A stretch of DNA of 59,372 nt, counting the filler, from Sphacelaria rigidula (taxonomy: Eukaryota): the NCBI GenBank assembly GCA_964200075.2. It is 3 parts of 3 records of this genome, joined end to end, with 100 filler letters (N's around TTAATTAATTAA, not from the genome) between each part and the next. Parts side by side here need not be neighbours in the genome. Positions count along the whole stretch, not along the records: positions 39,651 to 59,372 come from CAXNAA020000624.1; 2 more parts are not named here. One strand, 5' to 3'. The notes beneath the pieces are model-generated. The model saw only the letters and a program-made list of their open reading frames with translations. It searched no databases and had not been told where the DNA came from. Within the stretch, counting starts at the first letter, position 1, and each line of letters opens with the position of its first letter. Position numbers and translations under genes: made by a program. Positions 19,727 to 59,372 of this stretch are shown here, in pieces.

Positions 19727-19826
19727 NNNNNNNNNNNNNNNNNNNNNNNNNNNNNNNNNNNNNNNNNNNNTTAATTAATTAANNNNNNNNNNNNNNNNNN
19801 NNNNNNNNNNNNNNNNNNNNNNNNNN
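19727..19826. other. Artificial contig-joining linker (N44-TTAATTAATTAA-N44)
   Basis: Exactly 100 bp, with stop codons in all six frames; identical to 39551-39650. Confidence 0.97.
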
Positions 19827-36983: not shown

Positions 36984-38477
36984 GGTGGTGGTGCTCAGCC
37001 CGATTTTGCTCCCACGATGCTTGTGACAGTATACAGTGAGAGCCGAACTTTGTGCACAGCGCGAGAGTACGAAGATCGTGTGTGACGAGATATGCCGCAA
37101 CGAGTCTTTTTTTTTCTGGCAGCGGCCGTTTTGCGAATTGCTGGCCGCCCGCGCACTGTAGTGACGGATTATTTCTGGGGGAACCTAGCGAAACCATGAA
37201 CAGATTTTACCAGATATCTTCGCGTATCATACTTGCCATTTTCTACTGTATAACCCAATTTTGGAATTCGGAAGACGCCCCGATAAAGCAAATAGGAGAC
37301 ATGCGAGGTTAGCCTAGCCAGAGGCGATGGAGTGGCTCATGATGGTTTTTCAATTGAAGAGCTGACCTCGTCTCGAGATTGTTTCAACATTTCCCACCTT
37401 GGTACTCGAAGTTAGTATCACTGACAACAGGTTTGTTGATCTTCGGAGTGAAGAACTCGAACTGAACGGCAGTACATCACTTGACATGTACGGTACAGCG
37501 ACAGAGCAGTTCGAAAACGTGTAAAGATTGGGGAGGGAGTTGAAGATTGTGGTGTAATTTCTTCGTGGGTTGATGTCTAGAGAGAAGACGAATACGAACG
37601 CTCACTCTGCGTGTTATTCTATGACTTGACCGAAAAAGAACGGAGCGGATTCTGTAACGAATGTTGATGACATTCGCCCACGTCCGGGCGTCTTTTTTTT
37701 GATGTGTTATGTCGAGCGGGCTTGTGAATAGGGGGGCGTGGTTGAGCATTTCGTGATGCTGTTGTGATTCTGTAAGCCCTTGATATTTTGGGCGTGAGTC
37801 GAGGAGAGGTACGGATGTATATCGGGTCGTCTCCCACCCATATATGTGCAAAGCACATGCTGCTGCTTGCACCTTACGGCGCGGTCCTGTGCGATTTTCA
37901 ACCCTCTCCTCGCGATTTCTGTTGTTTCGGTCGCCGAGGGAGGATTTTGAATGATGTGGTTGTTGGCAAGCTGTCGACCTCCATCGGGTCTTCAACTGAT
38001 TCCATCTTGTACTGGTGGTCTGATGATGTAACAACTTGGTGTTGGATTGATGTAACGTTTTGTTGCAGATTGGTACACGCGTTGCACGGAAAGTCCGCAC
38101 ACATTCTCTTGTTCTTGTTGGCAGTACGAGGAATGTTCGAGCCGGGATGACGTGGGATGACGCAACAGCGGTTACTCGAGCACAAAATGTGTCTTTGTCG
38201 AGCCCCAAACGTGAGTTTGACGCTGTGACAACGTTTTCGCGAAACTGGGAGTGGAGAGCCGATTGAGGGCAGAGAGTTGATTGAGGGTGGCTCTGATGAC
38301 TCGCTTGTACTCGAAACGAAATACACAATTCTCTGTGTGCTCTTCTTGTACCCATCACTGGCGTGCGCTTGGAGCTACACGCGGATGAGCTCCTCGGACA
38401 CATGCGCAATAAATACCTGGAGAGGACTACAGTGTGTGGTTGGTTTACCTCACTCGACGTGAAGGTCGGTAGTGAAC

Positions 38478-38775
38478 AGTGTTTTCGTGAGATTGGGAGT
38501 AGATGATACGACTGAGAGTGAAAAGCGGTCAATCAGTGAATGAATCGTTNNNNNNNNNNCGAAATGCACTTCCACGAGGCCCAACATGCTTCCTGCAATA
38601 GCTGGCCACTGGGGCTTTTGATATCCCTGGGTAGGATATCGACTTGTAGCTGTAACCACACCGAAGTGATGGAGGTGAAGGAAAACACACGTGGAATAAA
38701 AAATGACTCACTTGAAGGGAGTGATGAAAGCCTCTCTTAATCGTATCATCTACTCTCAATCTCACGAAAACACTT
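38478..38775. repeat. Inverted repeat or small MITE spanning a 10-N gap
   Basis: gtgttttcgtgagattgggagtagatgatacga pairs with tcgtatcatctactctcaatctcacgaaaacac. Confidence 0.7.
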
Positions 38776-39550: not shown

Positions 39551-39650
39551 NNNNNNNNNNNNNNNNNNNNNNNNNNNNNNNNNNNNNNNNNNNNTTAATT
39601 AATTAANNNNNNNNNNNNNNNNNNNNNNNNNNNNNNNNNNNNNNNNNNNN
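39551..39650. other. Artificial contig-joining linker (N44-TTAATTAATTAA-N44)
   Basis: Same 100-bp structure as 19727-19826. Confidence 0.97.
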
Positions 39651-39717
39651 CGTGCAAGAGAGAAATGCCACTTCAACCCCATATTTTGTATGAACCCCAA
39701 AATTTAAAATCGGCTGT

Positions 39718-40300
39718 TATTTGATTGATCGATTGATTGATTGATTGTCGCACTTTAACTGACCCCCCAGGGGTTCAGCCGCCATGGTCTCAAGATAGAT
39801 GTATACCCAGGAGAAATGAAACTGAAAAACGCGCTGAAGAAAAGAAGGAACAGAGAGAAGAAAAAAAGTCGAACAAAACGACACAGCAGACTAAGTCGTA
39901 ACAAAAACAAGTTATGAAAAAGTCAACACAAGTAAAGCACAGAAATGGTTGACCTAAAAAGAAGTATAAAGAGGAAATTCAAGAGCAAATAAAATAAAAT
40001 AAAACGATGAAAAAAAGCAAAAGGCCCAAGGAATTTAGGGCAGCAGAGTAGATACAGAAACACACCGCAGTAGGCACCAACAACCGATATGAGCAGACAG
40101 GATTCTCCGAGTGGCAGCCTTCGACGCGTGTCCTCAGACTCTTCCGCTCCCTTTTCGACTCCAATATACCATTTGCCCATGTTCTTCGCCGCAGCGACCC
40201 AATCGTATGCATCGTTTACCTCTACAGCGTAGACGAACCACTTTCGTAGAGCTCCTTTTTATGCAAGCTTGCGTCACCGGGAAACGTCACTCCGAGTTCT
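39718..40300 (-). mobile_element. RTE-like LINE 3' end with (CAAT)n tail
   Basis: MGKWYIGVEKGAEE remnant and 3' UTR are homologous to 17600-17950; gattgattgattgattg tail at the left edge. Confidence 0.72.
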
Positions 40301-42584
40301 AACCGTAGTATAAGTCGCAGCCGTCGCCTGGGGTCCACAAGTTCCGGCAAGGATGTCACATGACTGACCAACATTGACCGCTCTTAACGTCCTCCAGTTG
40401 CAATCGGTGTCACATTCCTAAAAAATAACCATCAGGTCCAGTTATCCATTCGGGGGCTCTCAGAAGGGTTGGGGGTTCGGTGAGCCAGAAGCGCAAGCAG
40501 TTTTTTAACGAAAATACAGCTTGCTAGTTGTGCTGCATGCGATATGTATGGACACTCCCGATCGACTGCCTAAAGTGAACTTGATGAGGTGCTGGAGGTG
40601 CTAGAGGTATGTGTGAGTGTGTGTCCGTATGTAGGGAGAGACATTCGTCCCTGGAGGCTTCGAGAGTTATTTCATATCTTCCGAAAATCAAAGGCGAGGC
40701 ACAGGCGCGTTGACCCTTCATACGACGGTTTCGTCCAACCTACGGTACTGCTTCCGTATTTTCTTTCTTCAGGAGATGAAAAGGAGAATTATCGTCATCA
40801 AATGTCCCTCATCATTTTCGAAAAGCAAGGCGAAGAAAAGCTACGGTAGGTACGGCAGAGGAGACCTCGATATTCGATTCGTCCCTTCACCCCCGGCGGA
40901 ACAAAGGGAAGGAGGGCGAGTGGTACACCATCCAAATTCGTTTTAAGCTGCATCGTTATTTCCGCGAGAAGGTATTGGCCGAACATGCACAAACAGACCG
41001 TATTACAGTAGTTGTAGTAGTTACTCGATATTGTTTCTTCTCACAAACATTTGCGCACAACGTCTCATCATCTCAGTCATGCGCGCACCTCGTTCATCTA
41101 CATACTAAAAGCAGATGAGCCTTTACCCGAGCAATCTAGTCTCGACACATTTACTTCAATGAAAATCTGCGTCACTGAAGGAAAGAGGAATCGCAACTTC
41201 TCCTCCCCCCCCCCCCCCCCCCCCCCCCACACGTCGTACACGCACAAAACAGAACGGAAGACCACACACCACAACACAACACNNNNNNNNNNTCTACAGT
41301 GTGGACGTGGGGAAAAGGAAAGATAAAACGTCCCCCCCCCCCCCCCCCCCCCCATCAGGGGCAGGTGTGTGCTGCACAAAGCGTGGACCGCGAGGACAAC
41401 GATAAAGAAGCTGCCACGCAACGCATCGATCAATCCGGTTCAAGTGTTCCAATTCTTATGAGAAGAAATCATATAAGCTAGACTCCATTAATTTACGGAA
41501 GCTAAAAGTTAGACCAACCCCACCACACTCATCACCCAAGTACTCAGCACGCCAAAGCGGGGGTCTAGGCCAGCGAATGTTCACTGACACGAGTGAAAAT
41601 ACCATGTACCTCAAGCGCAACAACGTAACAGCGGGATTCACACCGCTTCCAGGAATCAAAACACTCCCTCTCCCCCCCTCCCCCACACACCATACAAGTC
41701 GTACAAGCACAAAGCAGAAAACACATGGTGGAAACAGAAACAGCTTATTCCAAGGGCAGCTCGGGTAGGGTATATACCCGATGTTTTGATATATTAAAAA
41801 AGTTGCCAATCACCTGCTCAAGCCAGTCACAACGTTATCGGGTACACCCCACCCGACCTGTACTTGAAGCTTGCGTGTACAGCACAAAAAAATAAACAAA
41901 ACAAGGTATTCGTGCATGCAGACGGCATACTGAACGGACGGACGGACGGATGGGAGCTACTAGGGGAAAACAAAATCCGGCCGATTTTCGCGGGGCAAAC
42001 GTCACTCGACACGGCGTCGACCAACACCGAAATGTTCGCCCTTCGTCATATTTACTCTCACCCAGTCCACTCCCTTCCAGAAACAAAAGCAAGGCAAAAA
42101 CCAGGCTTGAGCCCATAGGTTCATTACATGCGCAAAACACACGTACATGTGTGCGTTTGCTTCGATATAGGTCAAGGCCTTCCTGTCGCCGACACTGAGT
42201 GCCAAGGGAATCGACACACGCTTGCTTTTTTACAGGAACACTTTAGAATTGTCAGCGTTCTACTTTAGTAGCAATTCACGATCTCGTCGTCGAGTCGATG
42301 CGTAGATATGCGGTGAAGCTATTTTCGTGGTTGAATGAAGACAACAACGAAAACACAATAAACAGCAACACCGAATGACACAAAGAAACAAAACAAATAA
42401 ACAGGACAACTAAGCAGCAACATACACGGCAAGGAACGTTCACAGACACGAAAAAAACACTTGGCCAGTCATCTTTTACCCCAAGTCGACGGAAAACCAT
42501 GAGTTCAAACCACGGCATTCCCTTCTTTTTGAGGGAAATCCCAAAAGAATGAAACAAAAACACAGTGTCTTTCAGGAAATTTCA

Positions 42585-45500
42585 TCATTCCAAAGCGGAG
42601 GAAGCGAAGGCGATCTTCAAGTCACCATCGTCGTGACGGATCGAAAAGTCGCTGGAGAATGGCCCGGACACGCGGTAGTCCTCTTCGGTGCCGCGAACAG
42701 CCGACATACCCCGCATGATCGGCTTTCCAGTAGAGACATCAACCGTAGGATGTAATGTCTCGCCCAGAACGCCCTGCGGGTACATCCCGAGGAAGGCGCG
42801 CTCGATGCCCATATTCATCTGGAATGTACGGTGGTCCGGCAGATCAAACTGGTCGGTAGGGTCCCTCATTGCCAGCTGTGGGTAGGGACGGGACAAGAAC
42901 GCGACGCGTAGGGCAATGGACGGGACAGGACGGTTTTCGACTCGAAGAGCTTGAGACGATCAGCCTACCTGGTTCCGGTTTCGTGTAATAAGTGGATTGA
43001 TGGAGTCATCACGCATGACTTTTTCCGTTACAAATCCAAGCATTGTCACAAGATAAATTTCCCCGCGCCTACTCGAAGTAAAAAGCAGCTGTTAAGGGTG
43101 AGCACATTCATGCATGAGGCATGCCACGCTCTGAACCGTATATCTGGCTCAACTTTCTCCGCCCAACCACTCACGCTCGAAATCCTCGTTCGTTCACATT
43201 CTTCCTCAACTACACGCGGTCTTCGCGCTGGCGTATAGCAATGTTCTGTGATTATCGAACCCGGACCAGCCATCACCAAGGAAATTTCAGTGGATAGAAG
43301 AACTTCGGCCACCGGTACGACCTCTGCACCACCAGATCAGAAAGAGTGTCGACAGGATCACCCACACACACCTACACAAAAATATGTCGAGTTCGTACAG
43401 TACAGTACAGTACAGTACCTGGTGCAGCTTCCCATGGTTGAGACGTATCGTGAGATTTGGCGTGACAATCTGGAACGACGTGTGCTCAGACTGGTAGTGG
43501 AACAGGGAGTTCTGCGCCACATGCTTCGCCACGAACGACTTGCACTCCTGCATGTTGGTCGCCTTCGAGTCCCCCAGGATCCACTCGTCCATCGGAACGC
43601 TGTACCGGATGAAGTCATCTAAACGACGCCCGCCAGCAGCCCCCGGGGCCGACGCTTCGGCCTGCCTGACCTTCTCGGCCCAGTAATTCTCGAACCCGAA
43701 CGGCCTGCACTCTCCGGGGATGTTCACCGCACCCACGGAGAACCCGGATCCTATCTCGACTTGTGCGGGGGAAATCATGGGCTTCTCGTCGAGCAGCACC
43801 TCGATCGCACCATCCGCCAGGCACGGAGTGTTGGTGGGGCAGTAGGTCGGGGTGTAAAAGTCCTCCGGGTGCTTCACCCTGACCTGGACCGTGTGCATGA
43901 CGCCGTCCGCATCCGCCGCCTGGAGCGCGAAGCCAACGATGTACGTCACGACCTGAAGGGTGGGCACGGGCGCGTGCAGGAGCATGGTGACTACCGTGGA
44001 GGGCTCGTCCTCGGTGAGGAGGGCGTAGTAGCCGCCGTCCTGGCCGGTGAAGTCGAACTTCTGCCCGCGGAAGCCCACCAAGTGGGGGTCGCCCTCGGCC
44101 TCCACTTCAGCTGGAGTGTTTTCGGAGGGAGGCGGACGTGTAATTGGGATTCATACCGGCAGGAGGGAAAGAGGGAGAAGTGCATGAAAAATTGCAACGA
44201 AACAGCTTTGAGTGCAGCCAAACCGACGAACAGCAGAGGTGCTTCGTTGCAAAAGGAGGGAGAGGGGGGGGGGGGGTCAGGCGGTTCAGAAAGGCAATTA
44301 CGGAGACCGAGAAACGGGCGTGTGTCGTATCCCCGTCCATGGTTGCAAGCCGTCATGTCGCGATGTGCGCGGAGAAGATTTCCGTCTTCATTCTTGCTCG
44401 TTCAGCGTTCATGCTGAGGACCAAAATAACGTTTTTTATTTGTTTTCACCTTTTCTCCATGTGCATCTTCAAAGCATGTCACTAGGTACCAGTTCGGAGA
44501 AATCCCAAACATTGGCTTCACACGGCGTTGTCACCGAATGAATCCTCCGGGCACACAGCATACGGACAATCTGACTGTCGTTTTTTCCAACTGAGCATTG
44601 CGTCGTTTCCACAGCTGGACGGTCAAGAATATAACGCAAACGACAACATTTTCAGCTGCTGTACCTAGTACGTTGTTCACGCATCATTACATCCCAGCAG
44701 TCATCACAGTGCACAAAATGAGTAAAACTATTTCGACGACAGTGAACGTACATTCCGTGCATTGGCTGGGAGATTCGCCACCCAGCGGCGACTCCTTGCA
44801 GATCAGGCCTTCACAGCACTCATCGTCCGTTCTACACTCGACCTCGACCGGCAAACAGCCCGGAGATGTAAGCACTGCAAAAAATGGGCGAAACCAAGAG
44901 ACGAGATGCGAGGAGAAGTCGAAGGAAAGTGAGAACGGATCACGTGGAAAAAGACTAGAGTAGCAGAGAGTGTGCGGCACGAGTGAGTGTCGCGTCTTAC
45001 TTGTACAGCGGGGAAGCGGGGATAGCTACGCATCTCGAGCATTGGCGACGAGGGGGAGGGGGGCACGACCACGTACTTCACACCGTTATCAATAGTTTAG
45101 AGTGCAACAAGTTTGAAGCTTTACAACTGAACGCATTTCGTATTTCAATTTGTTGTTACCGTAATGAGTCGCGGCTTCTGCTTTATCCGACACAATGTTC
45201 AAAACAATTCTATTTTCTACCATTTTCCATCGAGACACGGGATCATCGATCGTTGAGGGTCTTACGAATATGCAGCCTACGCCTCATCGCGTTGGAGGGG
45301 GGAGGGGGGGGGGGACCGATTCACCTGTTTCACTTCATGTTGAGATGACGCACTATTTTGCGTGTCGCGTGATGACAGAAAACTCCGAGCGATGAGAACA
45401 AACACATCCCACGCATCATGAACCGGGCGGAACAAAAGTACAGCACTACTTTTACATATGCGGACAACTGTGCCTAATGGCAAGGTAAAAAGCATACACT

Positions 45501-48500
45501 CATTTTGGCGATGACGAACGTGCCCGAAAGCAATTCAACATAATATACGTTCTGCATACATACATGATGGCGGAGTGTATATCTCGACATCAACCACTTG
45601 ACAGCAAAGTTTTGACAGCAAACGGTATATATATATATACTTGTCAAGATTTCTACACCAACTCCAATTCCATTATGAAAAGGAGCACCGTTCAGCACCA
45701 TGAAGGGGATAGCACCAACTATGTGGTTTGTCTGCGTGTGCATCGGGTAAAGGCGTTTCAATATTCCTAGTATAAAACCCCAACATAGATCCTCAAAAGG
45801 TGGAGAACACATCTGGAATGAAGGTAAAGTTGCATGGAATTGAGAGTCAACCTCAACGACGAAACGAAATTATGTAAAAACGAAAGAAGTATTCCACTCT
45901 AGCCAAAAATAAGGCCCATTAATTTTGGAGCTGTTTTGTTTTGAGATCGGGCTTGCAAGGTAATAGATGACTCTCCAGTGTTCGCGAGCGCCAAGGCGTA
46001 CACACGAGCCTCGACTTTCATTTCTCAGGGCGAAGGAAGCCGGCGGCCCCTGTGAGAGTCTCGTCACCACACCTGGCGGCCGCCGAAGGACCTCCAGTGG
46101 TGGTGTCGATTCGGCCGGATGCCGATGTCTCCCCCCGTACTCTACTGTACCATCAGTATACCTTCGCAAATGGTCTCGTCGCCATCTTGGGGAGTCCGGC
46201 ACGCTAAATTACTCTCGCAGTCAGTGTCATTGTCGCAGGGATCGCCGGGCTGTCTGGGGGCTGCACGCGAAAGTACGAAAAAAAACAAAAAACACACAAC
46301 AGACAAAATAAACAAAAAGGTTACACAGTACGGTTAGAAAGGAGAGAGTGATATGCTATTCTAGAAGTCAATGGTACAGCGCGATGAGAAAAACTGCAAA
46401 AAATGGTGAAATGATGAGCCAGACCCTTCCTTGATTATCGTCAACCTCGGCCGGGCGTTCTTTTTTTTTGCTCAAATCGTCCACATTTTTTTTCCCTGTA
46501 TATTCGTGAAGTTTGTGACCTACAACATTGTCTCAGTATCTTACGTGACAGACCATCGCAGGAGAAACGAGGTATGCGCCACACTTTGTGCGTGCGTCCA
46601 CGAAATGTCGCAAACGGTCCCGAGGGAGTGGGGAAGGAAGGGGTGTACTCATTATCATGCATGCCATAGTCATGAGTACACCCCACCTCGATAACTATTC
46701 AGCCCGGGACCCCTACATATTCTGCAACGGTCCCTTCAGGCTCAATTTTCCTATCGCGATGGTATCGCGATAAAAAGAACCCAAATTTCTCCATCGCAAT
46801 AGAGAAATTTGGCTCGGATAGCATCGCGATAGAGAGAAAGCGCGTTTTCTTCATCGCGATACCATCACGATACACCTAATTTACTTGCTCAATCTGGCGA
46901 AAAGAGGTCTGAACGGCTGTTTGAAGCAGCCTGAACGGCTTTTATACACATGATGCAAAATGTCGACACCCATGATGAAATTTTAACCATGACTGGGGTA
47001 ACGGGTCCCTTCACGCGAGGACCTTGGGGGTACGGACCCCTTCCCGCGACAATTGTCACAGGATCACACAATTTCTTGCAACGACCACTGGCAACACTTG
47101 GGCGACATTAAACATTTTCACGAGGAAATATGTAAGACCAGACACATCACCTTGATTTGATTTTCTCTGGTCGTGAACGATGGCATCGCGATAGCATCGC
47201 GAGAGAGAAATTTGTCTTTCTATCATGATGCTATCGCGATACCACTTTTAGGGTCAAATAGGCCTAAATGGACAGTTCCAGAATATGTGGTATATTGTTC
47301 AGCCCCGGGGCTGAATACGAAATATGAGGCGGGTGGGGCGCACTCGAATGCACTGCAGGACACCAGACATTGCGCAGTGCAAGGCGAAGGTTACCACCCA
47401 TCTCCTGGGGGACAACAAAACGAAAAACGTGAAATGATCCCTGTCACGTTGCCGCAAGCACCTTGAAGGAGGGCAAAATAGAGCGCGTAGCACAAACACT
47501 CAACATTTGCCTACAGGCCGAATGATGCACAACATCATGCTAATCAAAAGGGCGGGCGACTCACTTCTGCATTCAGGAGTTCGCATGCCCATGGCAAAAG
47601 ACTTGCAGTATAGGTTTCCGCAGCAGTCCTCGTCCATGGTGCAGCGCCCCGTTGACTGTTGGCATTCTTTCCGCGAACACGCTGTGAATGTCGTGGCACG
47701 AGAGGAAGGCGGGGAATGTTCAAGGTACGGGCGGGGTGGTGGATGCGGTGGAAGGAGACGGTGAACTTCAACATCATCTTGTAGGGTGTATCGATTATCA
47801 TCCATGGAAGCGATTGCTCAAATGCTTCTCGACATCTCCATCCAAGGAGCCGAACCGGGGTAGATCTATGGCACCCGACGCCCAAGCCGGGGGGGAACAG
47901 GTTCCAACGACGACGATAATAAATATACCTGTGACGCAGTGAAGTGATTCTACTCACTCTTTTCGTACGCTGCCGAGAAGTCATAGCCAAAGGTTGACAC
48001 ATTACTTTTTCCTGTTCCTCTCCATGGAGGATGAACTCCGACACAGTCCGAACCCCCCGACAAATCACAATTTGTAGGGCATGTACGAGTAGCAGTAGGT
48101 GAAGGAATGAAACCATACTCCGAAGATTTGGTTTGGATACGAAGATCTCAACCCTCCGAGTTCTCATCCTCAAGGAAAAGCTCCATCCTCAATTTCGATG
48201 ATCGACTGTTTTTTCCAAGAAAAGCCGCAAGGCTTGTTATGGACACGAGGACGTGAGGGTCCAGAGTCCTCTTGACCAGAGTCGACGCGGTGCGCGAGTG
48301 CTGTTTCAGCCCGAGATCACCGAAGGAAAAGGCATGTACCGGGGGGGAGATACGGGTTTTCGATTCCTGTGAGAACACGGACTCGTCCCGAGGAAGAATT
48401 GGGGGGTCGAGACAATGACCAAAATACCAATACACGTCATTTCAACCTGGTCGAAACCTATGACTGACATGACTGTACTCACGACCTTCGTTGGTTTCTC

Positions 48501-51500
48501 GTCGCATCCCAGCCGTGAAAGGATTTGACTGGCGTGCACGCAACTGATTTCAAAAGCGGTCGGGAAAATGTTGATATCGGACACTCACCTTGGCAATCAC
48601 TGCGTAAAGCGGTCGTCCCCTCGGTACACCCGGGGGGTGTACTCGTGCAGCAAAGGACGGGGGGGAGGTGTTGCATGCATACTACAGAATAAACGAGATA
48701 CCGTTTCACCCACCTCCACTGTCGCAGGCGAGGTCACGACAGCACTCAGAGTCCCCACTGCAGACGCCGTATTCGGAGACGCACCCAGGTGGCGGCGATG
48801 AAGTTTCTGCACGGATCAAAAGAAATAAGGGACGGTGGGGGGGGAGGGGCGAAAAGAGCCCCAGGAACACAAATCACACAAGAGGGTTCAGTGAAAAACG
48901 CATGTAAACTTTCTCGAAGACTTGGGACAAAAACAAAATCCTCTTGCACTCGCTGCCGGCTCGATGTGAGTAGTTCAGTCAGTGCACGAGTAAGTTTGAC
49001 TGAAAGACGTTCACCAGCCGCATAATATATGTAGGTCTTGGAATTGAAATTCAAAGCATTTTAGACCGTGTTGTTCATACGACCTGGCGGGATTTCCAGC
49101 TCGACGGGCGATCAGATCGGACGGCAGACGGATCATGATGTGAAAACCTTGATCAAGTGTCGAAACTGTTCGCTTCCTCAACAAAAGATGTGGTACGTGG
49201 TCCGATCCTGGCATGACCGTTTGTGGAAGGAACGAGTTTGATCTGTGAAGAAAGTGAGCGGTCACTGGTTCGGGTAAACTGTTCTCTTCCTGAACAGCGC
49301 CTGGTTTAAAGGTGGGGTCATCTCGAAGCTCGTCTCGTACTTTAGGGCCTCGAATATTAAACGACACTTCTGAAACGCACCGTGGCAGTAGTTGTCCCCG
49401 CCGCACTCCAGCCCGTCGCAGCAGTCTGAATCAGTATCGCAGTACTCGTCCTGATACTTGCACGGCTCTGATTTGCAGCGAAAACAGCGAAAACAGCAAG
49501 AGAAATTAGCATAAAATAACACGCAAAGAAATACAAAACATATGAAGATGGAAAATAAGTTAGCATCCAAAACATTCTTCATATTGAACGTGTACGGCAA
49601 GCGCACAATAAGCCCCATCAGTGATGAAAATTACCAGACTTGACCTGACCACGACCGTTCAAAAATGGTGAAGTTGAGACGACATTTGTTCCGCCATAAA
49701 AACGACAGAAATGGAACAAAAAAAATCTAGACGCGTCGCACGACTTTCAAAAGCTGGAAAGTTTCACGAACGGCAATGAGCAGTTCGCGACATTTTTTCA
49801 AGCAGTACCCCTTAGCCCTGACGTCCGGTGGGACTGAGCTCTGCTCAGCTGCGCTTCGAAAAGGACCTGGTGATAGCGCTCCCCATAGACCGTCCCAGTG
49901 CTGCACAACACCGACAGCCTCCTGAAAACGGAAGGTGACTGCACTGATGGCATTGACATCGGAGTACCTCCGTGTCAGGAGGCTATGTCTCTCGGCTCCG
50001 ACAGCGGGCGAACTGAACTACGCTCAGCAACGTATGCTTAAAAAAAAACTTGTGATCCAGTGGTGCTGCTGAAGGGATCGCGCTGGTGCTGTGTATCACA
50101 GGGGGCTAGTGACAACGGCAGACACGATTTTACTGCTGGACATTAGCAGTAGATTACCTTGGCAGAAGTTTTCGTCGCAGATCAGGCCGTCGCAGCACGT
50201 GGAGTTGTCGTCGCACCACGCGTTCTGGTCCATGCAAGGCTCTGGATAGAGACCAAAACAATGAGAGATATGAAAGCATGGAGAAACCAACGAGACCCAA
50301 CGGCGATCAAGCGCCTGTATATACATGTGTACGCAGTGAAAACATCACGAAAAATAGTACTGCTACTGTTTATTGTTTGTTAGTGACGTAATGCAATGGG
50401 GAGAGTTCCGAAAAACACGGGTTCCTCTCGGTAGCGGATACGTCTAACAATTATAACACTATTTCGAAGAAAACTCGAGATGTTTCTTCCAGCTGTTTTT
50501 TTCGACCTTCGCCTGTCTCAACTTCATGAGATATGTACCAAACCGTACGCTGACACGACAAGGGCTGACAAAAGGAACATGCGTTTCCCGAACCAGTAGA
50601 AGTTGGACGCAGCACATGGAAAAAAAAAACAATGCGCACGTACCATCACAGACGTTGCTTGCAAAGTCGCACACGAGGTCGTCGCAGCAGCTCGTCGCCC
50701 CATCGCAATGGTCGAACTGAGCCGCGCAGGTCGGGGGGGGATCTGGTGATCATCCATCCGCGCACACGAACCCATCGCCCAAACAAAACGCAAAATAAGG
50801 AAGGAAAAACAAAGAGAAACGAACGGATTCCGAGCTCAGGAAAATTATTCCTGATCTCCTCTCGCTACCGTCTACAGTAATGCATCAAACGATATCACGC
50901 AACCTTTGTTCACGTCCCGCATTTCCCCCTCTATCACGTCCCGTTCCTCCTAATATAGTTCACATTTTGTACCTGTATGACTTCTGCTCTCTATTCCATT
51001 GCCACAGGGGCAGGTCTGTGCATTTACTTCCTCCTCCACACGACTACTGGTCATTTGTACTACTGTCGGGGGAGCGGGGGTAGGTGCGCGCGAGGGTAGC
51101 AACCAACAAACGGGCGCTGACGAAGCTTGTATGGATCACCATTTGGGTGTCGTTTTTATGTCATAAATACTCACCAATGCAGCGACTTCCGTCGAAAACC
51201 AGACCATCGCAGCACTGCCACCGGTAACTACACCGCTCGTTTCGCTCGTAGCATTGCTCTAGTGTTGGCGTACACGGAAATGACAAAAAGGCACATACAC
51301 ACGGGCGAGCACAGGGAAGCGTCGGTCCGTGGTGCACTGTAGCATCAGCGCAAGCCGGGGAGACTTGACGCGTGGGGCAGGATTTATATGGAAAGAGAGC
51401 TGCCAAGTGGTTCAGAGGCGGCATGTACAAGTAATAGCAGTGAGACGAAAAAAAAAGTGGATCGCTGTGGAGCTAGACCCAACGGCACTGAAGAAGAAAA

Positions 51501-53178
51501 TAGGGTAGATGTGGGTCCTCTTCGGCCGTCACGTACTTTGGATGCCGTATTGGCTTGACAGATGACATGGTGATTTCATTCGATTTAAAACATCCAATAC
51601 AAACTGACGGCGAAACGCAGGCAACAAAACAGTGAAGAAGCTCAAGAATTACCAAGGCCCAAAAAACGAGCACGAGGTGAGAGAGGACGAGAGGAAGCAT
51701 GACAAGCGCACATACTCTTTGGTACATGCTGTGGCACACCTTTGCACGTCCCGCCCTGGCATTCCAAGGAGCTGCAGCAGTCGTCGTGGCTGGCGCATGA
51801 CTCATCGGCCATGCTGCATTTGTCTGCAGTTGTTCGAGGAGCGGAGAGCAGGGGGAGGAGCTGATCATATCGGGAAGACTTGAGACGTACTTTCGATCCC
51901 GACGATACGAGACGACCACCAACATGTGCAAACGATTCGTCGATGATCCTGCCGCATTTTCATCACTTCGAGGGCAGAAGCTCTCGTCGGTAGAACGTCA
52001 ACGAGGGGCCTGAAACACCGATACACGAAGGAATAGCTGAACTTCTCTTCGCTTGCGATCCACGATGCCTACTCCTCGATGACAACAAGCATGCAGTGCG
52101 GGCCGTGAAATTCGTAGTTCCCAACCCTTGAAACGCGTAAATGCTGTCGAGCTGAGGCAGCAGAATTTGGCATATTTCATGTGATGATTCGAAGGTGGAT
52201 ATATATCATATATATCTCACCTAGGGGATTATTTCACGACGATCTGAGACTCCAACGAGTCGCACAACCGCCGTACGGCAAACGAGGAACGAGGAGGCGG
52301 TCACAACATCTCCGGGGAGAAGGAACGCCACTTGCCTTCCCTGAATCGTGAGGCTTTGTATTGTCGAATGAAGAAAATTAAGCAGTACTCTGCGCACATG
52401 TTTGCGGTTGTCCATCACTCATCTCACCCCAAAAATCGCCCTCATCGAAGAAGACCCGCTACCTCACACCCCAAACGGTCCCCGGTGTGGATTTGTGAAC
52501 TCTAATGTGCCGATTCGTACCTTGGCAATAGCCCCAGCTGCACTGCATGCCGGTGCAGCAGTCGTCATCATGAGAGCAGGTGTAGCCGGCGCGTTGACAT
52601 CGTTCCCCTTCGAAATTTTGCAAATATTAAACGGGGGTGTGTGGACACGACGCGACAGCAGCATGCGTTTTCGATTCAATAGAGAAACATGCCATCATAG
52701 ATTTCTAGCGATTATAACACGAAACCGCGCACCACGTCGGCTAATTGATAGTAACATCTTACCAACTCGCGTACTGCCATGTATATTATAATCCGACACT
52801 ACTGGCCCGCACTCCATCCGGCCATATCGAGATCTCGGAACCATGACGGTATCTCACAGGCTAGGAATGTGACGATGATACTTGATGCTGTGGATCGTCC
52901 ATCGATGTATTACGATATCATATACCAGATCAAGCCAATTTTAGAGGACGATGCGCATCCCTATCTTTTGTGCCCTCGTGTCGAAGAAACAAAAATGTGC
53001 TAGTACTCGATACTAAGCTGTTCTTCCTCAAGTTGCCTTCAGTTCACGCCACCCTTGCCCTTTTATTGAACTCACAATCTCCATCGTCGTCCTTTCGCCG
53101 TCCTCCTCTTGTCCAGAAGGTTGCCGAAGCTGGCAAAACAAGCAGCAACGCCGCCGCCGCAGTGCTAAGCCCCCTCAT
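42585..53178 (-). CDS. Secreted multi-cystine-knot (knottin/ICK-like) repeat protein with C-terminal GDPH vWD/root-cap-like domain; 13 exons, about 682 aa
   Basis: Exons: 53178-53076 (MRGLSTAAAALLLVLPASA signal peptide), 51823-51740, 51258-51175, 50742-50644, 50241-50158, 49467-49381, 48806-48714, 48681-48589, 47681-47565, 46260-46162, 44874-44752, 44110-43419, 42875-42585. All introns are GT-AG. The lengths sum to 2049 nt with no internal stop. Confidence 0.82.
43419..44110 (-). CDS. Exon 12: vWD/root-cap-like domain starting EAEGDPHLVGFRGQKFDFTGQDGGYYALL
   Basis: GC-rich coding ORF (43287-44105 in the track), acceptor ctccag| and donor CAG|gtactg. It continues in frame into exon 42875-42585 (LAMRDP...GVLGETL...RGTEEDYRV). 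Confidence 0.9.
46672..47347. mobile_element. Nested MITE-like elements in an intron
   Basis: Outer inverted ends gagtacaccccacc..tattcagcccggg / cccgggggctgaata..ggtggggcgcactc. The inner element is gacccta...tagggtc with repeated ATCGCGAT palindromes. Confidence 0.45.
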
Positions 53179-55154
53179 CTGCTCGGCTCATTCATCACGC
53201 GACCGAGATATAGGCACGCGCGGACGAAGGAACGTGCGCGACAGTGCATTCACGAGAACGAGCACAAGATGAGGACGCGAGGATACAGATGGATACAAGT
53301 GTGACAGGATCGCCACAAGCGGTTGGCGTTGGGGTTGAAGGAGACGGAGGGGGAGCGAGGGGGGGTGTATTCATGATCTTGCATGCCCTGGTCCCAACAC
53401 CACAGATCTCGCATCCCTACAAACACCCAAGACAAAGCCCACTAGGGTTTAGCCAAACCAGTCTCTCAACCACCAAGCGTGAAGCGCCGTGATCTCGCCG
53501 GCGAGACATATGATGAGCGGTGACCTGTTTCCTGTGAAGCCTGTTCGGCCCGAAGCGTACTGATTGCAGTAGTTTCCAGCAAAATCAGGGGGTCTTTGTA
53601 GCTCTTTTATTGGCGATTTTTGGTAGTTCTTTCGCATATCACCGCTCGTCCCAGCGAACGGTTGATCCCAAATTGAAAGATCTGGGGATACTGAGCATCC
53701 GCTCTGAATTCCGAAAAAAAAATCATCCCAGCAACATTGAACAACTCACGGGATGACCGGTCCAGGTTTTGACCTTCGAGTATTTCTGCTCGATTGAAGC
53801 GATCCCAATCGCTCTCGTGAACTATGTAAATTGATTATTTGTATAATTTTCACCTATTATTCGAGCTGGAGCCAACAAACTGTATTTTGGACCAGTGACG
53901 ATCGTCAACGCCCGCTGACATACGAGGTCCTTGCTCCGTGTCACCTACCACATCGACTTGAGGATCGTGTACCGAGCACCACCTACTTGTTCCCCGGTTT
54001 AGATCAGCGCTAGGACTTTCGAGAGCTGAACGATACGTACTATTCGAGAAAATCCAGAAAAATATCAAACTACGAAAATCACACACACGAGCCTTGTATA
54101 GCACGAAGGGAGACGAATCCATCCCGATCGCTCTCGTGAATATTTTTTCATACCCTTATTTCGAGGTTCAAGTATTCATTGCGCAAGAGCCGAAGTAAAA
54201 TGTATATAGGAAAAAACTTCCGATCGGATCGCCGAAATTCCCCGAAATTGGATTTTCCCGTAGGACCTCAACATTTCGGTTNNNNNNNNNNAAGATTTTA
54301 ATCCTCCGGGTTCTTTTCCTCAATGAAAAGCACCATCCTCAACATAGATGATCGGCTGTTATACCCAAAATTTATTCCCCGGCTGATGACGAACGCAAAA
54401 CCCAGCCAATATGCCGAAATGTGTTACTATAATGACCGCAATGAACAGACAAACATTGTGGCATGGCCATAGTTCGTTCAGGGCAATAGCGGTGGCGCTA
54501 TGGACCGAAGTATGTCTCGAGCAATCAGCGCCCTCCACATTGTTCCGAGATCGAAAACACGAATTAGAAGTCCAATTACAACCAAATCTGCACATGGTTC
54601 AACTCGTAGTAGCCATCATCAGCCTGGAAATCTAACGGGAGAAACAGAGTTGAAAACGATGCCAACGGGGTCGAATTACGCTCAAAACCGGTAATGTTTC
54701 GGTGATGTGGAGCTTCGGCGTCGTCCAACTTCCTCCCATGATATGTACGAAAGATCCACGGAGTGTCGTGACCATTTCCCCTTCATCTGTTGCAGAAAAG
54801 CTCACATCATCCTCAAACTTGGCAGTTTTGTAGGAATTGATGCTTCAAATGGAAAAATTTCATTCTCGGCAAAATTCCAGAGTTTCTCTGTTCTCTACCG
54901 GCTTCCGCGGGTCCCAGCATGAAGACCCACAGAAACCGGTACAGAATGCCTCAACCCCCAAAATTATTTCGACACCTTGAGGTTAGTGGTATCCCAAGGA
55001 ATATTTGTGCGAATTTTCATGACCCAACTCGAAAATCTAGACTAGAACAGCGCGTGCAAGCCAAAAATAACCGGTAAAGTCGTCCCTTTATTCTTCAATC
55101 AAGTAATTAGGGGGACACGCAGACTTTTTCATACTTCAGCGCACGTTTCGCGAT

Positions 55155-55435
55155 TTCCTCACGCCGGTTTTTCCAGTTGGACCACGAAAATTTGTACACA
55201 TATTTCTTGAGGGCACTATCCAAAACTCGAAAACCGTTTTTTTATTCCAATTTTTTTGTTTTTGACTTTTCATCCAAGGTCGCGGTTGACCTACTTGACC
55301 GGGGGATGGGTCAAATCCCGACCATCTCGACATCAATTTCTTTTTCAAACCCCGGTCTTCGAGTTTTAGATAGTGCCCTCAAGAACATGTGTGCAAATTT
55401 TTGTGTTCTGATAATATGAAAAATCGGCGTGAGTA
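55155..55435. repeat. Foldback / long inverted repeat, probably a non-autonomous DNA element
   Basis: ctcacgccggttttt...aaaatttgtacacatatttcttgagggcactatccaaaactcgaa pairs with ttcgagttttagatagtgccctcaagaacatgtgtgcaaattttt...aaaaatcggcgtgag. Confidence 0.75.
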
Positions 55436-55686
55436 ATTCCCGGGGAATGAATTTTGGGCGTTCAATTTGAACCAGCTCGTAAAACACTCGAGTACTCAAA
55501 AGTACATACTCTACTCGACCTGCCCTCCTTGGAGATTTGGAACAAGTTCCAAGAACGCTCCATGATCAGTAATGAACCAAATGCGACCCCCGTCGCGATA
55601 ATGGACGAAGAGGTAACATATTTGCGGGGACAGCCAACGGCAGAGAATTGCACATACACAAGAGTGCCGTAGCCAAGACCATATAC

Positions 55687-56046
55687 AGTGTGTGTGTTGT
55701 CGTCCCATCTATTTTGGACGCCAGTCTACACCTTTCAGGATATGTGGGCGCATCAGCCGGGGTCACACAAGAGGAAGCTCAACACAGGAGATTTTTCCTT
55801 TCCATTTGTTTTTATTGCAATACCCCACCTTCCTTCTGCGGTGCTTGCCTTTATTTTTTTATCGTGGTTCAGCAGTCCCTTTCCCTCGTCGACCGTTCAG
55901 TCGATTTTCGTGTACCCACGACATAGTCGCTCTCCACTGCTGGGCACGGTGTAAGAAAAAAATCCCAGATCGCTTCGGGAATCGAACCCCACTATCATCC
56001 GTCAGAAGGTCACGAGGTTACCAACTGAGCCACCGGAGCGAACCGC
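55687..56046 (-). mobile_element. tRNA-derived SINE, full-length and best-preserved copy
   Basis: Reverse strand reads ccggTGGCTCAGTTGGtaacctcgtgaccttctgacggatgatagtggGGTTCGATTCCcg (Pol III A and B boxes), then a body of about 280 bp and an ACACAC tail. Confidence 0.85.
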
Positions 56047-59000
56047 TACACAGTACAGTGCAGTATTCCACGTGGAACACTACCTTCGTCTGGAATGCGA
56101 CGCTGAATTGTTGCAAGCTTGGCGCCTAGAGGTATGGGCATAATAATGTGTTGACACCACACGACGCCGCAACGGCGTTGGCTGGCCACGTGTTCAAGGG
56201 GCTTGAACGCCAGTCCCTCAAACACGCGTGATTTAACACTTGCTTGGCGACTCCTTGTCAGATGTTCCAGGCCACACCCTCATCGATACCATACAGATAA
56301 TCTTGGAGCCATATAAAAAAACTCTCGAATATCTGCCGATTTTCGGCAACGTTCGATTGAATAAAACGGAGAGACCAACGGTGAGATCACCTTCCGCGAA
56401 GCTTGCATCCAGGCAAGACGAAGGAACATCGTGTCCTACATTCACCGCTTGTGGCGGACAAACCAAACACACCTCTGACTGAGGGTATCACGCCCCCACA
56501 GACGCGGCGCACTCGTGTATCCGATGTACAGTGAGTGATCACGTCGTCGCCGTAAATAGCGAGCGAACTAATTTCTCCGAACAGCAGGATGCCCACGCTC
56601 GAACTTCATCACACCAATCCCTGGTGTGGGTATTGGGCTCAAATCGGGTGAACTTTGGGCGGGAAAAAATTGGGCGCGTACTTGAGACTTGTGGATCTGT
56701 GACTGGGGTTGTACGCGGTCATGATCGAAACCGGAGCAACAGGCTGTGGAGATAATCTTGAGATAATATATGCTAACGTGAGCCGCAGATCCTCTAGGGC
56801 ATCAGTCGCAGCACATTAATTGAATTCATACTGTGATATGCACGAAACGGGTTTTTGCTCTTCTCGTGAATACCATGCCGATTCAACGCATGGCCCACCA
56901 TGGTGATCAAAGGGACAAACGATGAGCTACTCAAGCACGTGAGAGGCCGTAGGTGAAATGTGGTACCAACAGTGTATCAAAACCGAACCATAGAAAGTGC
57001 GGCGGAATCAAGCAGATTTTTCGTAGAGGGTTGAATTAACGGACTTTGAAGTTTTGCCCAGAAGGACGCAGCCCACGCGTTGACAGTGGGGATTTCAACA
57101 CAATGACACGATACAATCGGTGTGAAACGACACAACGTGAAGCTCTCCGAGCGGGCCATACAGCCACCTTTCAAGTGTTGGTAATACTGATTCAAGGCCT
57201 CACCCACCCTTGCGGTCATCAACGGATCCTACTTATTACACGCATCAACACCAGCAAGCGGATTTGTAATAATGTTTTTGGGGCGTAACGGGATGAACGG
57301 ATATCCCATTATTTGACATGGAATATCAACGGTCGCGAATTGTATGCGGCTTACTACCGAAACTTGGAACCCCTACGAACTATGAGCAATATCGGAACAT
57401 GCGCGCAGTAGCTCCGTGACCTTTTGTCTGGCTTTGTTCGAATCTCGATGGCTACGGAGGTCGGGGGGAGCGGGGGGATCGTCGACTCTTGACGTTCAGC
57501 TTGCCACGTACACCGCAGACGCCTCGTAATACGGTACTGTGCCAAACAGACACGGACTGGTTTGAACGTACAGTACTCCATGCAACAGAAGTGGCCAGTG
57601 CCCAAAATGTACTCTCAAGATCTGTTGTGCCGCACGGTATACAGTTGCACAAAAGTGTTGCAATTTGTCCGGTACCGCTGTTCATCATTGCTGTTGTCAA
57701 GCAAGCCGTAGACGTGTACAGTCAAGACCCAACCAGGCTGTGAGGTGTCAAACCAGATGGTGTACGCAAGGGCAGAGCACGATGTTGATATCCTGAGGGG
57801 GCAGCTGGTTACGCCAGTGCTCGATGTTACACTCCAGCCCTTTTTCCTGACATGAGTGCCAGTTCGGACCTGGTGTCGAAGTAGTGTGTCTTCTCAGGGA
57901 CAACGCACTTGACATTCCAGCACGGCGCGCGACACAGCCCGACAGAAGGTGTGCAAAATACGCCGGGTGTACACCCCTTCAGTCCAATCTTCCGTGTATG
58001 ACCACATTTCATCGTTGTATCCTGTGCGAGAAAGTAACCAAATGTCCTCTCGCTGCCCTCAGGGTACAATGCGCTCGCTGCCCTCAGGGTACAGTTCGCG
58101 CACTGCCGCCGCTATTTATGAACAAAAAGATCCTCTGGGCGCGTGCAGGTTTCCATTGGATACGAGAAGATGCAACACATACCTCAACTTTGAACACTAA
58201 ACTCACGTATGCGCACTGCCATGCGCTCTATAATTACCTTGATATAGCCCCTGTGATAGCACTCTCCGCCTCGCAGCCTCCCACTTCAGTCACACCACCG
58301 AAACGTATGGTACCGTGACTACAGCACGCGGGTGGTCTGTACAGCTTGCCGTGTGAGAGAAGGGGGAGCTGCCTGTGCGTGATGTGCCTGTGAGGTGGGT
58401 GCTGTTCTAATAAATTTCATTTCGAAAAGATCCAAAAGTTTCTCACGAGTATCCCATCGTGAAAATGACGCTATGTCATTCACCGATGTTCTCTCCTACT
58501 GTACGTGCTTGCACTTCTTATGCCCCATTCTGCTGTCTTCCTCTTATGACTCGCTGCCACTGGTAGTATTGCTGTCCTTGTCTCTTCAGCCTGCGAAAAG
58601 AAACACTCCGCGCTATCGAGCGCATGCGTGTCTCGCGTTGCATGCGACATGAGCAACATGATCGACATGCATTGTCGGACGGAATTTTGCACCGCGACAT
58701 TACACATACTGTACTAGATTACTGTAGTACGATCAAAATTTACTTCCCAGTGATTCCTCACGCCGGTTATTCGTTGATTATTTATGCCGCGCTTTTAAAG
58801 GCCGACAAACATAAACGTCTGGAAAACTGCCTTTTTGGAGCTTCTGCGTCGCTTTGCGCCCTAAAGGAGAGCTGGACGGATCTTGACAAGTTGGATTGCT
58901 TTGTTCGTTGAGACGGTTTCAGCACAAATGTGCGTTTATCCGTTGGCAGCAGTATTTTCCTTGCTCATACTAGTATTTTTCCAGGTTTGTTTTTGTCCGG

Positions 59001-59372
59001 ACTTGACCGATCTCGGACGAAAATGAGCGGTCTCCGAGAAAAACACAAGTGGGTGCTGGGTCATAGAGTGTCGTTTTCCGGGTTGAAATTCTTGCGTTTC
59101 TGACTCTGGGCGGTATTTCCAGCGGCAGACATCCTGAAACCGATTGGCGAGGAGGCTTGCTCTTGCATGCCGCCAGCGTCGAGATGCTGCTCTGGCAGTG
59201 AGATACTGATTTCACCCTACGTGGTGGCGATGTGAGAGAATAACCAAGTGGTGGGGCAGGGGTCTGTCGAGAGAATTTTTCGGGCACGCAGTCCCCCCCC
59301 CCCCCCCCCCCCCCCCACGCGCGCCACTTCCGAAAAAACACAACACGTTTTGTGTTTTGTTTTTGGTTTGTT

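Follow-up and report, generated by a model that had tools for sequence, protein, structure and literature searches.

What kind of gene underlies a series of small, cysteine-rich exons followed by a GDPH motif in the brown alga Sphacelaria rigidula? The question was raised by a 59,372-nucleotide stretch of DNA (hereafter called the window) made up of three joined parts of GenBank assembly GCA_964200075.2, with positions 39,651 to 59,372 coming from record CAXNAA020000624.1. An initial annotation had proposed that positions 42585-53178 conceal a secreted polyprotein, in which an array of toxin-like cystine-knot modules is fused to a GDPH domain resembling the D domain of von Willebrand factor (vWD). 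The gene has 14 exons, is transcribed, and is that of a brown alga or a very close relative of one. Its predicted product is a 680-amino acid protein with a signal-peptide-like start, ten one-exon cysteine modules and a GDPH domain of ~320 amino acids. What is new here is the ten-fold knottin-like array, together with the recognition of a cassette in which a six-cysteine module is joined to a GDPH domain; the GDPH tail itself belongs to a large but poorly described family and is no isolated case.

Eight sequencing runs, from two studies, were found to match the window. Sampled words of the window were present at 16-20% in runs X1 to X4, and at 91-94% in runs X5 to X7. Contigs of X1, X2, X3 and X5 were aligned to positions 41300-54280, which gives neither expression level nor transcript ends. 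Runs X1 and X2 each yielded one contig of ~3.3 kb (depth 254 and 369, respectively), and X3 yielded two contigs of 1.2 and 2.1 kb, with the joints residing in the 2.1-kb contig (depth 441.5). One contig in each of these three runs skips the same 12 stretches, all of which begin and end as CT..AC on the plus strand and thus correspond to GT..AG introns of a minus-strand gene. The 12 joints are absent from DNA run X5, whose contigs continue through the introns. Because the joints occur in X1-X3 and not in X5, the X1-X3 contigs represent spliced RNA, as the initial annotation had anticipated in calling for a spliced, transcribed gene. Tempering this interpretation, the RNA label of X1-X3 is a guess and all three runs belong to a single study. 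With this point taken into account, we still regard the gene model as nearly certain.

When the exons are joined by their coordinates, the coding sequence (CDS) spans 2,040 nucleotides, or 680 codons, with no internal stop. It runs from an ATG at 53178-53176 to a stop codon at 42585-42587 through 13 coding exons on the minus strand, such that the interval first proposed for the gene is exactly the CDS. Beyond position 53180, the RNA contigs carry loose ends of 20-31 nucleotides with a unique match in the window at 58240-58259. The features of the gene are as follows, where UTR denotes an untranslated region and joints are those seen in the RNA contigs.

58238-58270, minus strand: 5' untranslated exon, 3' end only; its last ~31-33 nucleotides are seen, with a GT donor at 58237-58236
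53179-58237, minus strand: intron 0, 5,059 nucleotides, GT..AG, in the 5' UTR and directly before the ATG
53076-53178, minus strand: exon 1, with ATG, signal-peptide-like N-terminus and a short charged stretch, ending in phase 1 (RNA joint 52606/53075, cut +1; translation)
52521-52607, minus strand: exon 2, module 1, six cysteines (RNA joints, cysteine pattern; sub-threshold Dickkopf_N, 24 bits, and Conotoxin_I2)
51740-51823, minus strand: exon 3, module 2, six cysteines (RNA joints, cysteine pattern)
51175-51258, minus strand: exon 4, module 3, five cysteines, the fifth cysteine replaced, hence an odd count (RNA joints)
50644-50742, minus strand: exon 5, module 4, six cysteines (RNA joints, cysteine pattern)
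50158-50241, minus strand: exon 6, module 5, six cysteines and an N-x-S/T sequon (RNA joints, cysteine pattern)
49381-49467, minus strand: exon 7, module 6, six cysteines (RNA joints, cysteine pattern; protein P0186 is the same open reading frame, ORF, from a near-identical genome)
48714-48806, minus strand: exon 8, module 7, five cysteines in the exon, the sixth being the first whole codon of exon 9 (RNA joints)
47565-47681, minus strand: exon 9, module 8, six cysteines, long last loop (RNA joints, cysteine pattern)
46162-46260, minus strand: exon 10, module 9, degenerate, four cysteines and an N-x-S/T sequon (RNA joints)
44752-44874, minus strand: exon 11, module 10, six cysteines, adjoining the GDPH domain; the module chosen for folding (RNA joints, cysteine pattern)
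43419-44110, minus strand: exon 12, bearing the GDPH motif at residue 360 and the larger part of its domain (RNA joints; relatives at 45-64% identity)
42585-42875, minus strand: exon 13 as far as it is translated, completing the GDPH domain with its last 96 residues and ending in the stop (RNA joints; relatives align past the exon 12/13 junction)
41334-42584, minus strand: 3' UTR, at least 1.25 kb (RNA contigs unbroken from 42875 to 41334-41359)

The lengths of exons 2 through 11 are all divisible by three and every junction is in phase 1, which is the arrangement expected from duplicated or shuffled module exons. Nine of the ten cysteine-rich exons listed by the initial annotation were correct. 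The tenth, reading CCTSTPPGC...DC, belongs to an ORF (48479-48733) within intron 8 (47682-48713), and the mRNA lacks it. The list was also incomplete, since the full six-cysteine module at 52521-52607 had been missed, and a VC sequence had been mistaken for the source of the sixth cysteine of module 7.

Some features of the DNA at this locus were noted separately. Summed contig depth in X5 reaches 3,600-113,000 in the bins 46496-46928, 47795-48227, 50826-51258, 52991-53423 and 53857-54280, and is ~25-30 elsewhere, which indicates that these bins hold very high-copy repeats. They are mostly intronic, with 50826-51258 overlapping exon 4 and 52991-53423 overlapping exon 1. A pair of 38-nucleotide direct repeats lies at 46852 and 47184. 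There is an assembly gap just past the 3' end of the gene and another inside intron 0.

The encoded protein has 61 cysteines, 57 located N-terminal to the GDPH motif and four after it. From residue 22 to the Gly-Asp of the motif, the chain comprises 340 amino acids (37 kDa) with a pI of 4.05, carrying 75 Asp and Glu residues and 24 Lys and Arg residues, and the part from Pro-His onward comprises 319 amino acids with its four cysteines. Linkers between modules are 0-6 residues long, and the last cysteine of one module is separated by 2-9 residues from the first cysteine of the next. The array holds a single dibasic pair and no recurring linker or repeated processing site, and the protein has three N-x-S/T sequons. 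By inspection, the N-terminus consists of a basic residue, a core of ~17 residues rich in Ala and Leu, and small residues at -3 and -1, as is the rule for signal peptides. It therefore looks like a signal peptide, in keeping with the exon that had been proposed for this role. The N-terminal part has an odd number of cysteines owing to the five in module 3, and one thiol may be free or engaged in an intermolecular bond.

To what class of fold do the modules belong? The pattern C-x3-9-C-x3-8-CC-x2-7-C-x2-16-C was searched in six frames over the whole window. Eight matches were obtained, seven of them modules and the eighth an intronic ORF of low complexity. All fall within 44.7-52.6 kb of the minus strand, and there was no match on the plus strand or elsewhere in the window. 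The modules are ~28-41 amino acids each, and the eight complete ones (the others have five and four cysteines) follow the framework C-x6-C-x5-CC-x4-C-x(4-14)-C. Only the cysteine columns, an acidic stretch ahead of the CC and a leucine two residues past it are common to all ten, and identity to the first module is 21-37%. Among the module exons, repetition at the DNA level is weak and limited to a 31-nucleotide core (71% in four exons), and the introns are unrelated. Any module duplications must therefore be old.

A profile of the modules was compared with 177,635 distinct sequences of the Protein Data Bank (PDB), yielding 60 matches at E<=10 (best E 1.4e-4) with all six cysteines aligned. The molecule names listed for these 60 matches are all those of toxins or inhibitor cystine knot (ICK) peptides, with spiders, cone snails, sea anemones and a sponge among the sources. 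Seven of the ten modules also match the Pfam family Toxin_12 (PF07740) at E<=1. Module 10, the one above the gathering score, reaches 24.0 bits (cut-off 21), which covers only profile positions 1-23 of 30 and falls to 19.8 bits when the module is scored within a longer ORF. This match is driven by the cysteines and is silent on ion-channel activity.

Module 10, the one module folded, was modelled with AlphaFold2 (AF2) from an alignment of the ten modules. The model has a predicted local distance difference test (pLDDT) score of 83.5 and forms a beta-hairpin with strands at 24-26 and 37-39. The top structures retrieved by Foldseek are psalmotoxin-1, the sea-anemone Ms11a peptides, Tst2, funnel-web Hc3a, Pn3a and SGTx1, which superpose with template modelling (TM) scores of 0.6-0.7 and a root-mean-square deviation (rmsd) of 1.0-1.6 A over 34-36 columns, at E-values that are not significant for a model of 40 amino acids (0.35 and up). 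Draxin, Dkk and squash trypsin inhibitors appear at lower ranks. An ICK is defined by disulfides I-IV, II-V and III-VI, the third of which threads a ring, and in module 10 this connectivity is supported only indirectly, by superposition on ICK toxins; this and the E-values count against a firm knot assignment. An ESM Atlas search with module 10 returned, as leads only, theraphotoxin, omega-atracotoxin and myxobacterial arrays of Dickkopf_N/DUF7107 (best value 0.83). From the profile and the model, the modules are very probably knottin-like as a fold class, and the profile and Foldseek matches agree with the C-C-CC-C-C framework of ICK peptides recognized at the outset. Homology of the modules to any toxin family is unsupported.

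The likeness to the ICK peptides of spiders, cone snails, sea anemones and squash knottins thus resides in the six-cysteine framework and its spacing, and is not established beyond it. Unlike these peptides, the window modules are present in ten copies per chain, are fused to a large domain, occur in an alga, are acidic and lack a propeptide or processing sites. Further copies of the array were sought in two ways. In a 5.8-billion protein database, the module profile matched only P0186 in the longer length class, and P0186 represents this very locus in a near-identical genome, as an ORF read from stop to stop; only 441 candidates were scored, and this outcome is therefore weak evidence of absence. 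Likewise, a hidden Markov model (HMM) of the modules gave P0186 as the sole significant match among 311 fetched proteins.

The GDPH domain has many relatives. Exon 12 (230 amino acids) has no match in Pfam at E<=1. Relatives in the named protein database number 41 in the longer length class and 107 in the similar length class, and cover 96-100% of exon 12 at 45-64% identity (63-64% for the best), with E-values down to 1e-87. At E<=1e-3, a library of 1.84 billion sequences gave 184 representatives, of which 93 have E-values of <=1e-10. All organism-named relatives but one are from Phaeophyceae (Ectocarpus, Scytosiphon, Undaria, Choristocarpus, Sphacelaria, Laminaria, Hapterophycus, Cladosiphon and Nemacystus), and none is identical to the window protein. 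The exception, P0245 (304 amino acids, 48% identity), comes from a metagenome bin labelled Hyphomicrobiales and is probably algal DNA binned with bacteria. There is hardly any doubt that the window protein belongs to a brown-alga-centred family of C-terminal GDPH proteins, and the brown-algal affinity suggested for it earlier was upheld apart from this one bin.

Searches further afield gave little. A metagenome scan with exon 12 produced 71 pattern matches, none of which was confirmed. A bee protein, P0079, was considered as a relative (13 stretches, E 1e-18) and rejected as repeat-summed similarity, with 25% identity and a best BLASTP E-value of 8e-4. Another distant match, the Dyadobacter type IX secretion system protein P0146, carries Laminin_G_2 and Por_Secre_tail but no VWD, and Pfam VWD was found in none of nine distant matches.

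The core motif is present in 123 of 333 fetched proteins, 116 of which have G-DPH. Following the motif, 88 of the 123 have 250-360 residues, 34 are truncated and one has more sequence after the domain, such that 88 of the 89 complete relatives have the GDPH domain at their C-terminus. P0028 (858 amino acids) is the sole relative with a near-N-terminal GDPH domain, has ~500 residues after it, and may be a fused gene model. Among the proteins checked, the N-terminal passengers include Peptidase_S8, a Reprolysin-type metallopeptidase, CAP, right-handed Beta_helix, LPMO_10, LRR and Ank.

A six-cysteine C-C-CC-C-C module ends no more than 12 residues before GDPH in 53 of the 84 relatives that have at least 45 residues upstream. 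A knottin-like module joined to a C-terminal GDPH domain is therefore a hallmark of the family. Accordingly, the proposal that the architecture was undescribed holds for the ten-fold array, which is unusual, but not for the pairing of a single six-cysteine module with GDPH, which is family-wide. The window protein resembles its relatives in that its C-terminal ~320 amino acids align with theirs end to end, and in having a six-cysteine module before GDPH. It differs in the placement of the last cysteine, which is nine residues from GDPH in the window protein and adjacent to it in relatives (directly before the Gly in 70 of the 123 motif-bearing proteins).

Relatives have 0-3 occurrences of the cysteine pattern, compared with eight complete and two degenerate modules in the window gene, and the profile of its modules is matched by none of the other 332 proteins fetched. 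Exons of ~90 nucleotides can be missed by automatic annotation, and this contrast may therefore be overstated. In the Reprolysin-type members checked (P0012; most others assigned by precomputed Pfam), a second, internal six-cysteine motif, C-x6-C-x5-CC-x3-C-x5-C, lies far upstream of the module next to GDPH. The set with this motif consists of P0008, P0010, P0012, P0017, P0019, P0026, P0029 and P0045, so that knottin-like patterns recur in the GDPH family. We hypothesize, and no more than this, that the array grew from the module next to GDPH. Speaking against such an origin, an HMM of the juxta-GDPH module scores the window modules no higher than shuffles with fixed cysteines, module 8 excepted (a marginal 14.2 bits, compared with a shuffle maximum of 10.4). 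The array is thus not shown to descend from the family's module.

Is the GDPH domain a vWD domain? A profile of 29 family sequences was searched against the PDB, and only FCGBP matched, at its repeated GDPH..FDF.G strands, with a whole-sequence E-value of 3.5e-8. An AF2 model of the relative P0042, built from the 29-sequence alignment, has a pLDDT of 77, with most domain blocks above 90. The PDB structures that match this model best are D assemblies, namely those of MUC2, VWF, MUC5B, MUC5AC and FCGBP (Foldseek probability 1.0). At the sequence level, the GDPH at residue 360 aligns to the GDPH sites of FCGBP. The likeness to the vWD domains of FCGBP, MUC2, MUC5AC and VWF is seen in the succession GDPH..F.G..FDF.G at the start of the beta-sandwich. 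Unlike in those proteins, no cysteine-rich C8, TIL and E modules follow the domain.

Several results argue against too close a kinship. The FCGBP sequence match is confined to ~26 residues, and its individual stretches are weak. Pfam VWD (PF00094) is matched neither by the window exons nor by any of the 29 family members at E<=1. The structural matches of P0042, which is a relative and not the window protein, have E-values of ~1e-3, TM scores of 0.28-0.33 and rmsd values of 7-9 A. We conclude that the GDPH domain is most likely a distant vWD-like sandwich whose GDPH site is conserved, and that it is not a member of Pfam VWD. The vWD-like character first ascribed to it is thus retained at the motif and, weakly, in the fold, but does not extend to Pfam membership.

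ESM Atlas searches with exon 12 provided additional leads, and are cited only as such. Plant clusters, partly Root_cap, score 0.94; a diatom cluster scores 0.90 (VWD on 12% of its members); and an ITI_HC_C cluster scores 0.89. A further cluster, automatically named 'Imm upregulated 3 family protein', scores 0.95, with 201 of 256 features shared. For this last family, known from Ectocarpus and Saccharina, the likeness consists of the automatic Atlas label only, and the named relatives are called 'unnamed protein product' or bear gene-model identifiers. In the available portions of three papers, it is described as a brown-alga-specific, expanded and developmentally regulated family (PMC4421812, PMC6909449, PMC3652789).

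A domain named GDPH also exists in diatoms. Excerpts of the relevant sources assign it to adhesive trail proteins and call it diatom-specific (10.1101/2023.03.06.531300, 10.1101/2020.03.16.987719, PMC7335047). These resemble the window protein in being secreted stramenopile proteins, with a GDPH-named domain that co-occurs with vWD according to excerpts of two of them (PMC7335047, 10.1101/2023.03.06.531300); the two systems were compared by description only. No published description of the GDPH domain in brown algae was found in a search that did not extend to the supplements of the Phaeoexplorer and Saccharina papers, which may list the family. No relevant paper on a brown-algal knottin was recognized by title among those listed. 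Neither 'Willebrand' nor 'knot' occurs in the text of the Phaeoexplorer preprint, where 'cysteine-rich' appears in a single passage, on EsV-1-7.

What might such a protein do? In the ITIH proteins, the GDPH sandwich is a C-terminal piece that is removed. Excerpts of PMC10880436 describe this domain as an unannotated vWD-like sandwich, and report that autocleavage of GDPH in vWD domains occurs between Asp and Pro and requires the Asp and the His. Cleavage generates a reactive Asp anhydride, with which ITIH3 esterifies chondroitin sulfate, according to the accessible part of PMC8267560. The window protein shares with ITIH the order of a passenger followed by an unannotated vWD-like GDPH sandwich, whose Asp in ITIH is esterified to a sulfated polysaccharide (excerpts of PMC10880436 and PMC8267560). 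This likeness is drawn from descriptions and from the Atlas lead noted above, and coupling in algae is pure inference.

On a narrow balance, we favour the interpretation that the gene encodes a secreted, acidic, cysteine-rich protein of the matrix or cell wall. Its GDPH domain would undergo cleavage at Asp-Pro, by which the array may be coupled or set free. The modules would fold as rigid disulfide knots, giving a protease-resistant beaded rod of about 37 kDa that probably arose by repeated exon duplication. Autocleavage of the vWD-like domain would then take place between Asp361 and Pro362, following the example of vWD and ITIH domains; the chance of it is about even. The six cysteines ahead of the cut would be paired within the last module and the C-terminal domain has four of its own, and therefore no disulfide between the fragments is expected. 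This would differ from FCGBP, whose fragments stay disulfide-linked (excerpt of PMC8267560). The array, now ending in Gly-Asp, would then be released, or its reactive terminal Asp would couple it to a protein or polysaccharide of the wall; such covalent coupling is unlikely. The unpaired cysteine of module 3 could add an intermolecular disulfide.

Further considerations weigh against this interpretation. That the protein is secreted, folds as described, forms these disulfides and is cleaved is a matter of prediction throughout. In addition, the anhydride of FCGBP is merely hydrolysed and a cross-link was not found, as stated in the available part of PMC8267560, so that cleavage need not mean coupling.

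Other explanations of the locus must be weighed against the same observations. The array could be a knottin polyprotein that is cut into ten free ~3-kDa peptides acting as toxins, antimicrobials or protease inhibitors, with the GDPH part serving as a pro-domain. Tandem knottin precursors exist in plants, the modules match the folds of ICK toxins and inhibitors, and their divergent loops on a fixed scaffold recall the peptide families of venom and defence. However, the short linkers and close spacing of successive modules leave little between them, the lone dibasic pair does not amount to a repeated cleavage motif, and the strongly acidic composition is unlike that of cationic antimicrobial peptides. 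The loss of cysteines in two modules also fits a structural rod better than ten active peptides. We therefore consider this explanation quite unlikely, and the term 'polyprotein' used initially does not suit the gene. The suggested role as a toxin or in defence fares no better, as the array is acidic and nothing ties it to a target. A larger but still minor possibility is a multivalent binding protein, whose beads bind carbohydrate, metal or protein (on wall polymers, epiphytes or pathogens) and whose GDPH domain serves oligomerisation or stability without coupling. The LRR, CAP and LPMO passengers of the family point to extracellular recognition or wall work, diatom proteins with GDPH and vWD domains are adhesive trail proteins (excerpts of 10.1101/2023.03.06.531300 and PMC7335047), and cleavage of FCGBP mainly stabilises its domain, according to an excerpt of PMC10880436. 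Against this, no module matches a Pfam carbohydrate-binding family, and an acidic surface would presumably repel alginate and fucans unless bridged by Ca2+.

A secreted signalling ligand or antagonist with a developmental role, akin to the cysteine-rich domains of Dickkopf, colipase or draxin, is very unlikely. Such a role would agree with sub-threshold matches of four of the ten modules to Dickkopf_N (best E 2.6e-5), with Draxin and Dkk among the Foldseek matches, and with the 'Imm upregulated 3' cluster, as that family is tied to life-cycle and meristem expression in the available parts of PMC4421812 and PMC6909449. The best Dickkopf_N score is nonetheless 24 against a cut-off of 25, the spacing is that of a six-cysteine ICK and not of the ten-cysteine Dkk domain, and the 'Imm upregulated 3' link is an automatic cluster name. 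Least probable of all is a transcribed but non-functional locus, for instance a decaying duplicate whose mRNA yields no stable protein. Cysteines are indeed lost from two modules, and no orthologue with the same array was found among the 441 candidates and 311 proteins scored. Yet the 2,040-nucleotide frame is open across 12 canonical splice junctions, contigs are deep in three runs, and the GDPH domain keeps the conserved residues of its family over its full length. The matrix or cell-wall interpretation also draws on the composition of the array, since a rod that is acidic, locked by disulfides and left with one unpaired thiol is more easily understood as a structural or cross-linking protein of the matrix than as a series of free peptides.

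Elsewhere in the window, an ORF at 13102-13995 on the plus strand matches the Pfam rve integrase core (E 6e-9); it lies within a block of long ORFs from 10.5 to 16 kb and is probably a retrotransposon remnant. A 351-amino acid ORF at 37480-38532 was rejected as a gene, since it matches no Pfam family and is not coding-like. Searching the window by tblastn with five relatives gave no second GDPH gene. The window includes seven runs of N totalling 206 nucleotides, among them 19727-19826, 38550-38559, 39551-39650, 41283-41292 and 54282-54291.

The walls of brown algae consist of alginate and sulfated fucans, and little is known of how proteins are fixed in them. The gene draws attention to a family that is large, centred on brown algae and without a Pfam model, and in which a knottin-like module and a GDPH domain together form the end of many secreted enzymes and receptor-like proteins. 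The array of the gene is also a rare case, outside animals, plants and fungi, of ICK-like units that serve as tandem building blocks, and similar arrays may be under-counted because exons of ~84-123 nucleotides are easily missed by automatic annotation. If GDPH autocleaves in this family, it would offer a testable route to covalent attachment of proteins to the wall. It is even conceivable, though unlikely, that the six-cysteine module and GDPH form a self-cleaving coupler that esterifies passengers to alginate or sulfated fucan. If true, this would be an algal counterpart of the coupling of ITIH to chondroitin sulfate, here with a rod of ten knottins as the passenger, and would yield a structural or cross-linking protein that withstands proteases and is covalently grafted to the wall. 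The same cassette would then constitute a general mechanism for fixing proteases, LRR proteins, LPMOs and structural proteins in brown-algal walls.

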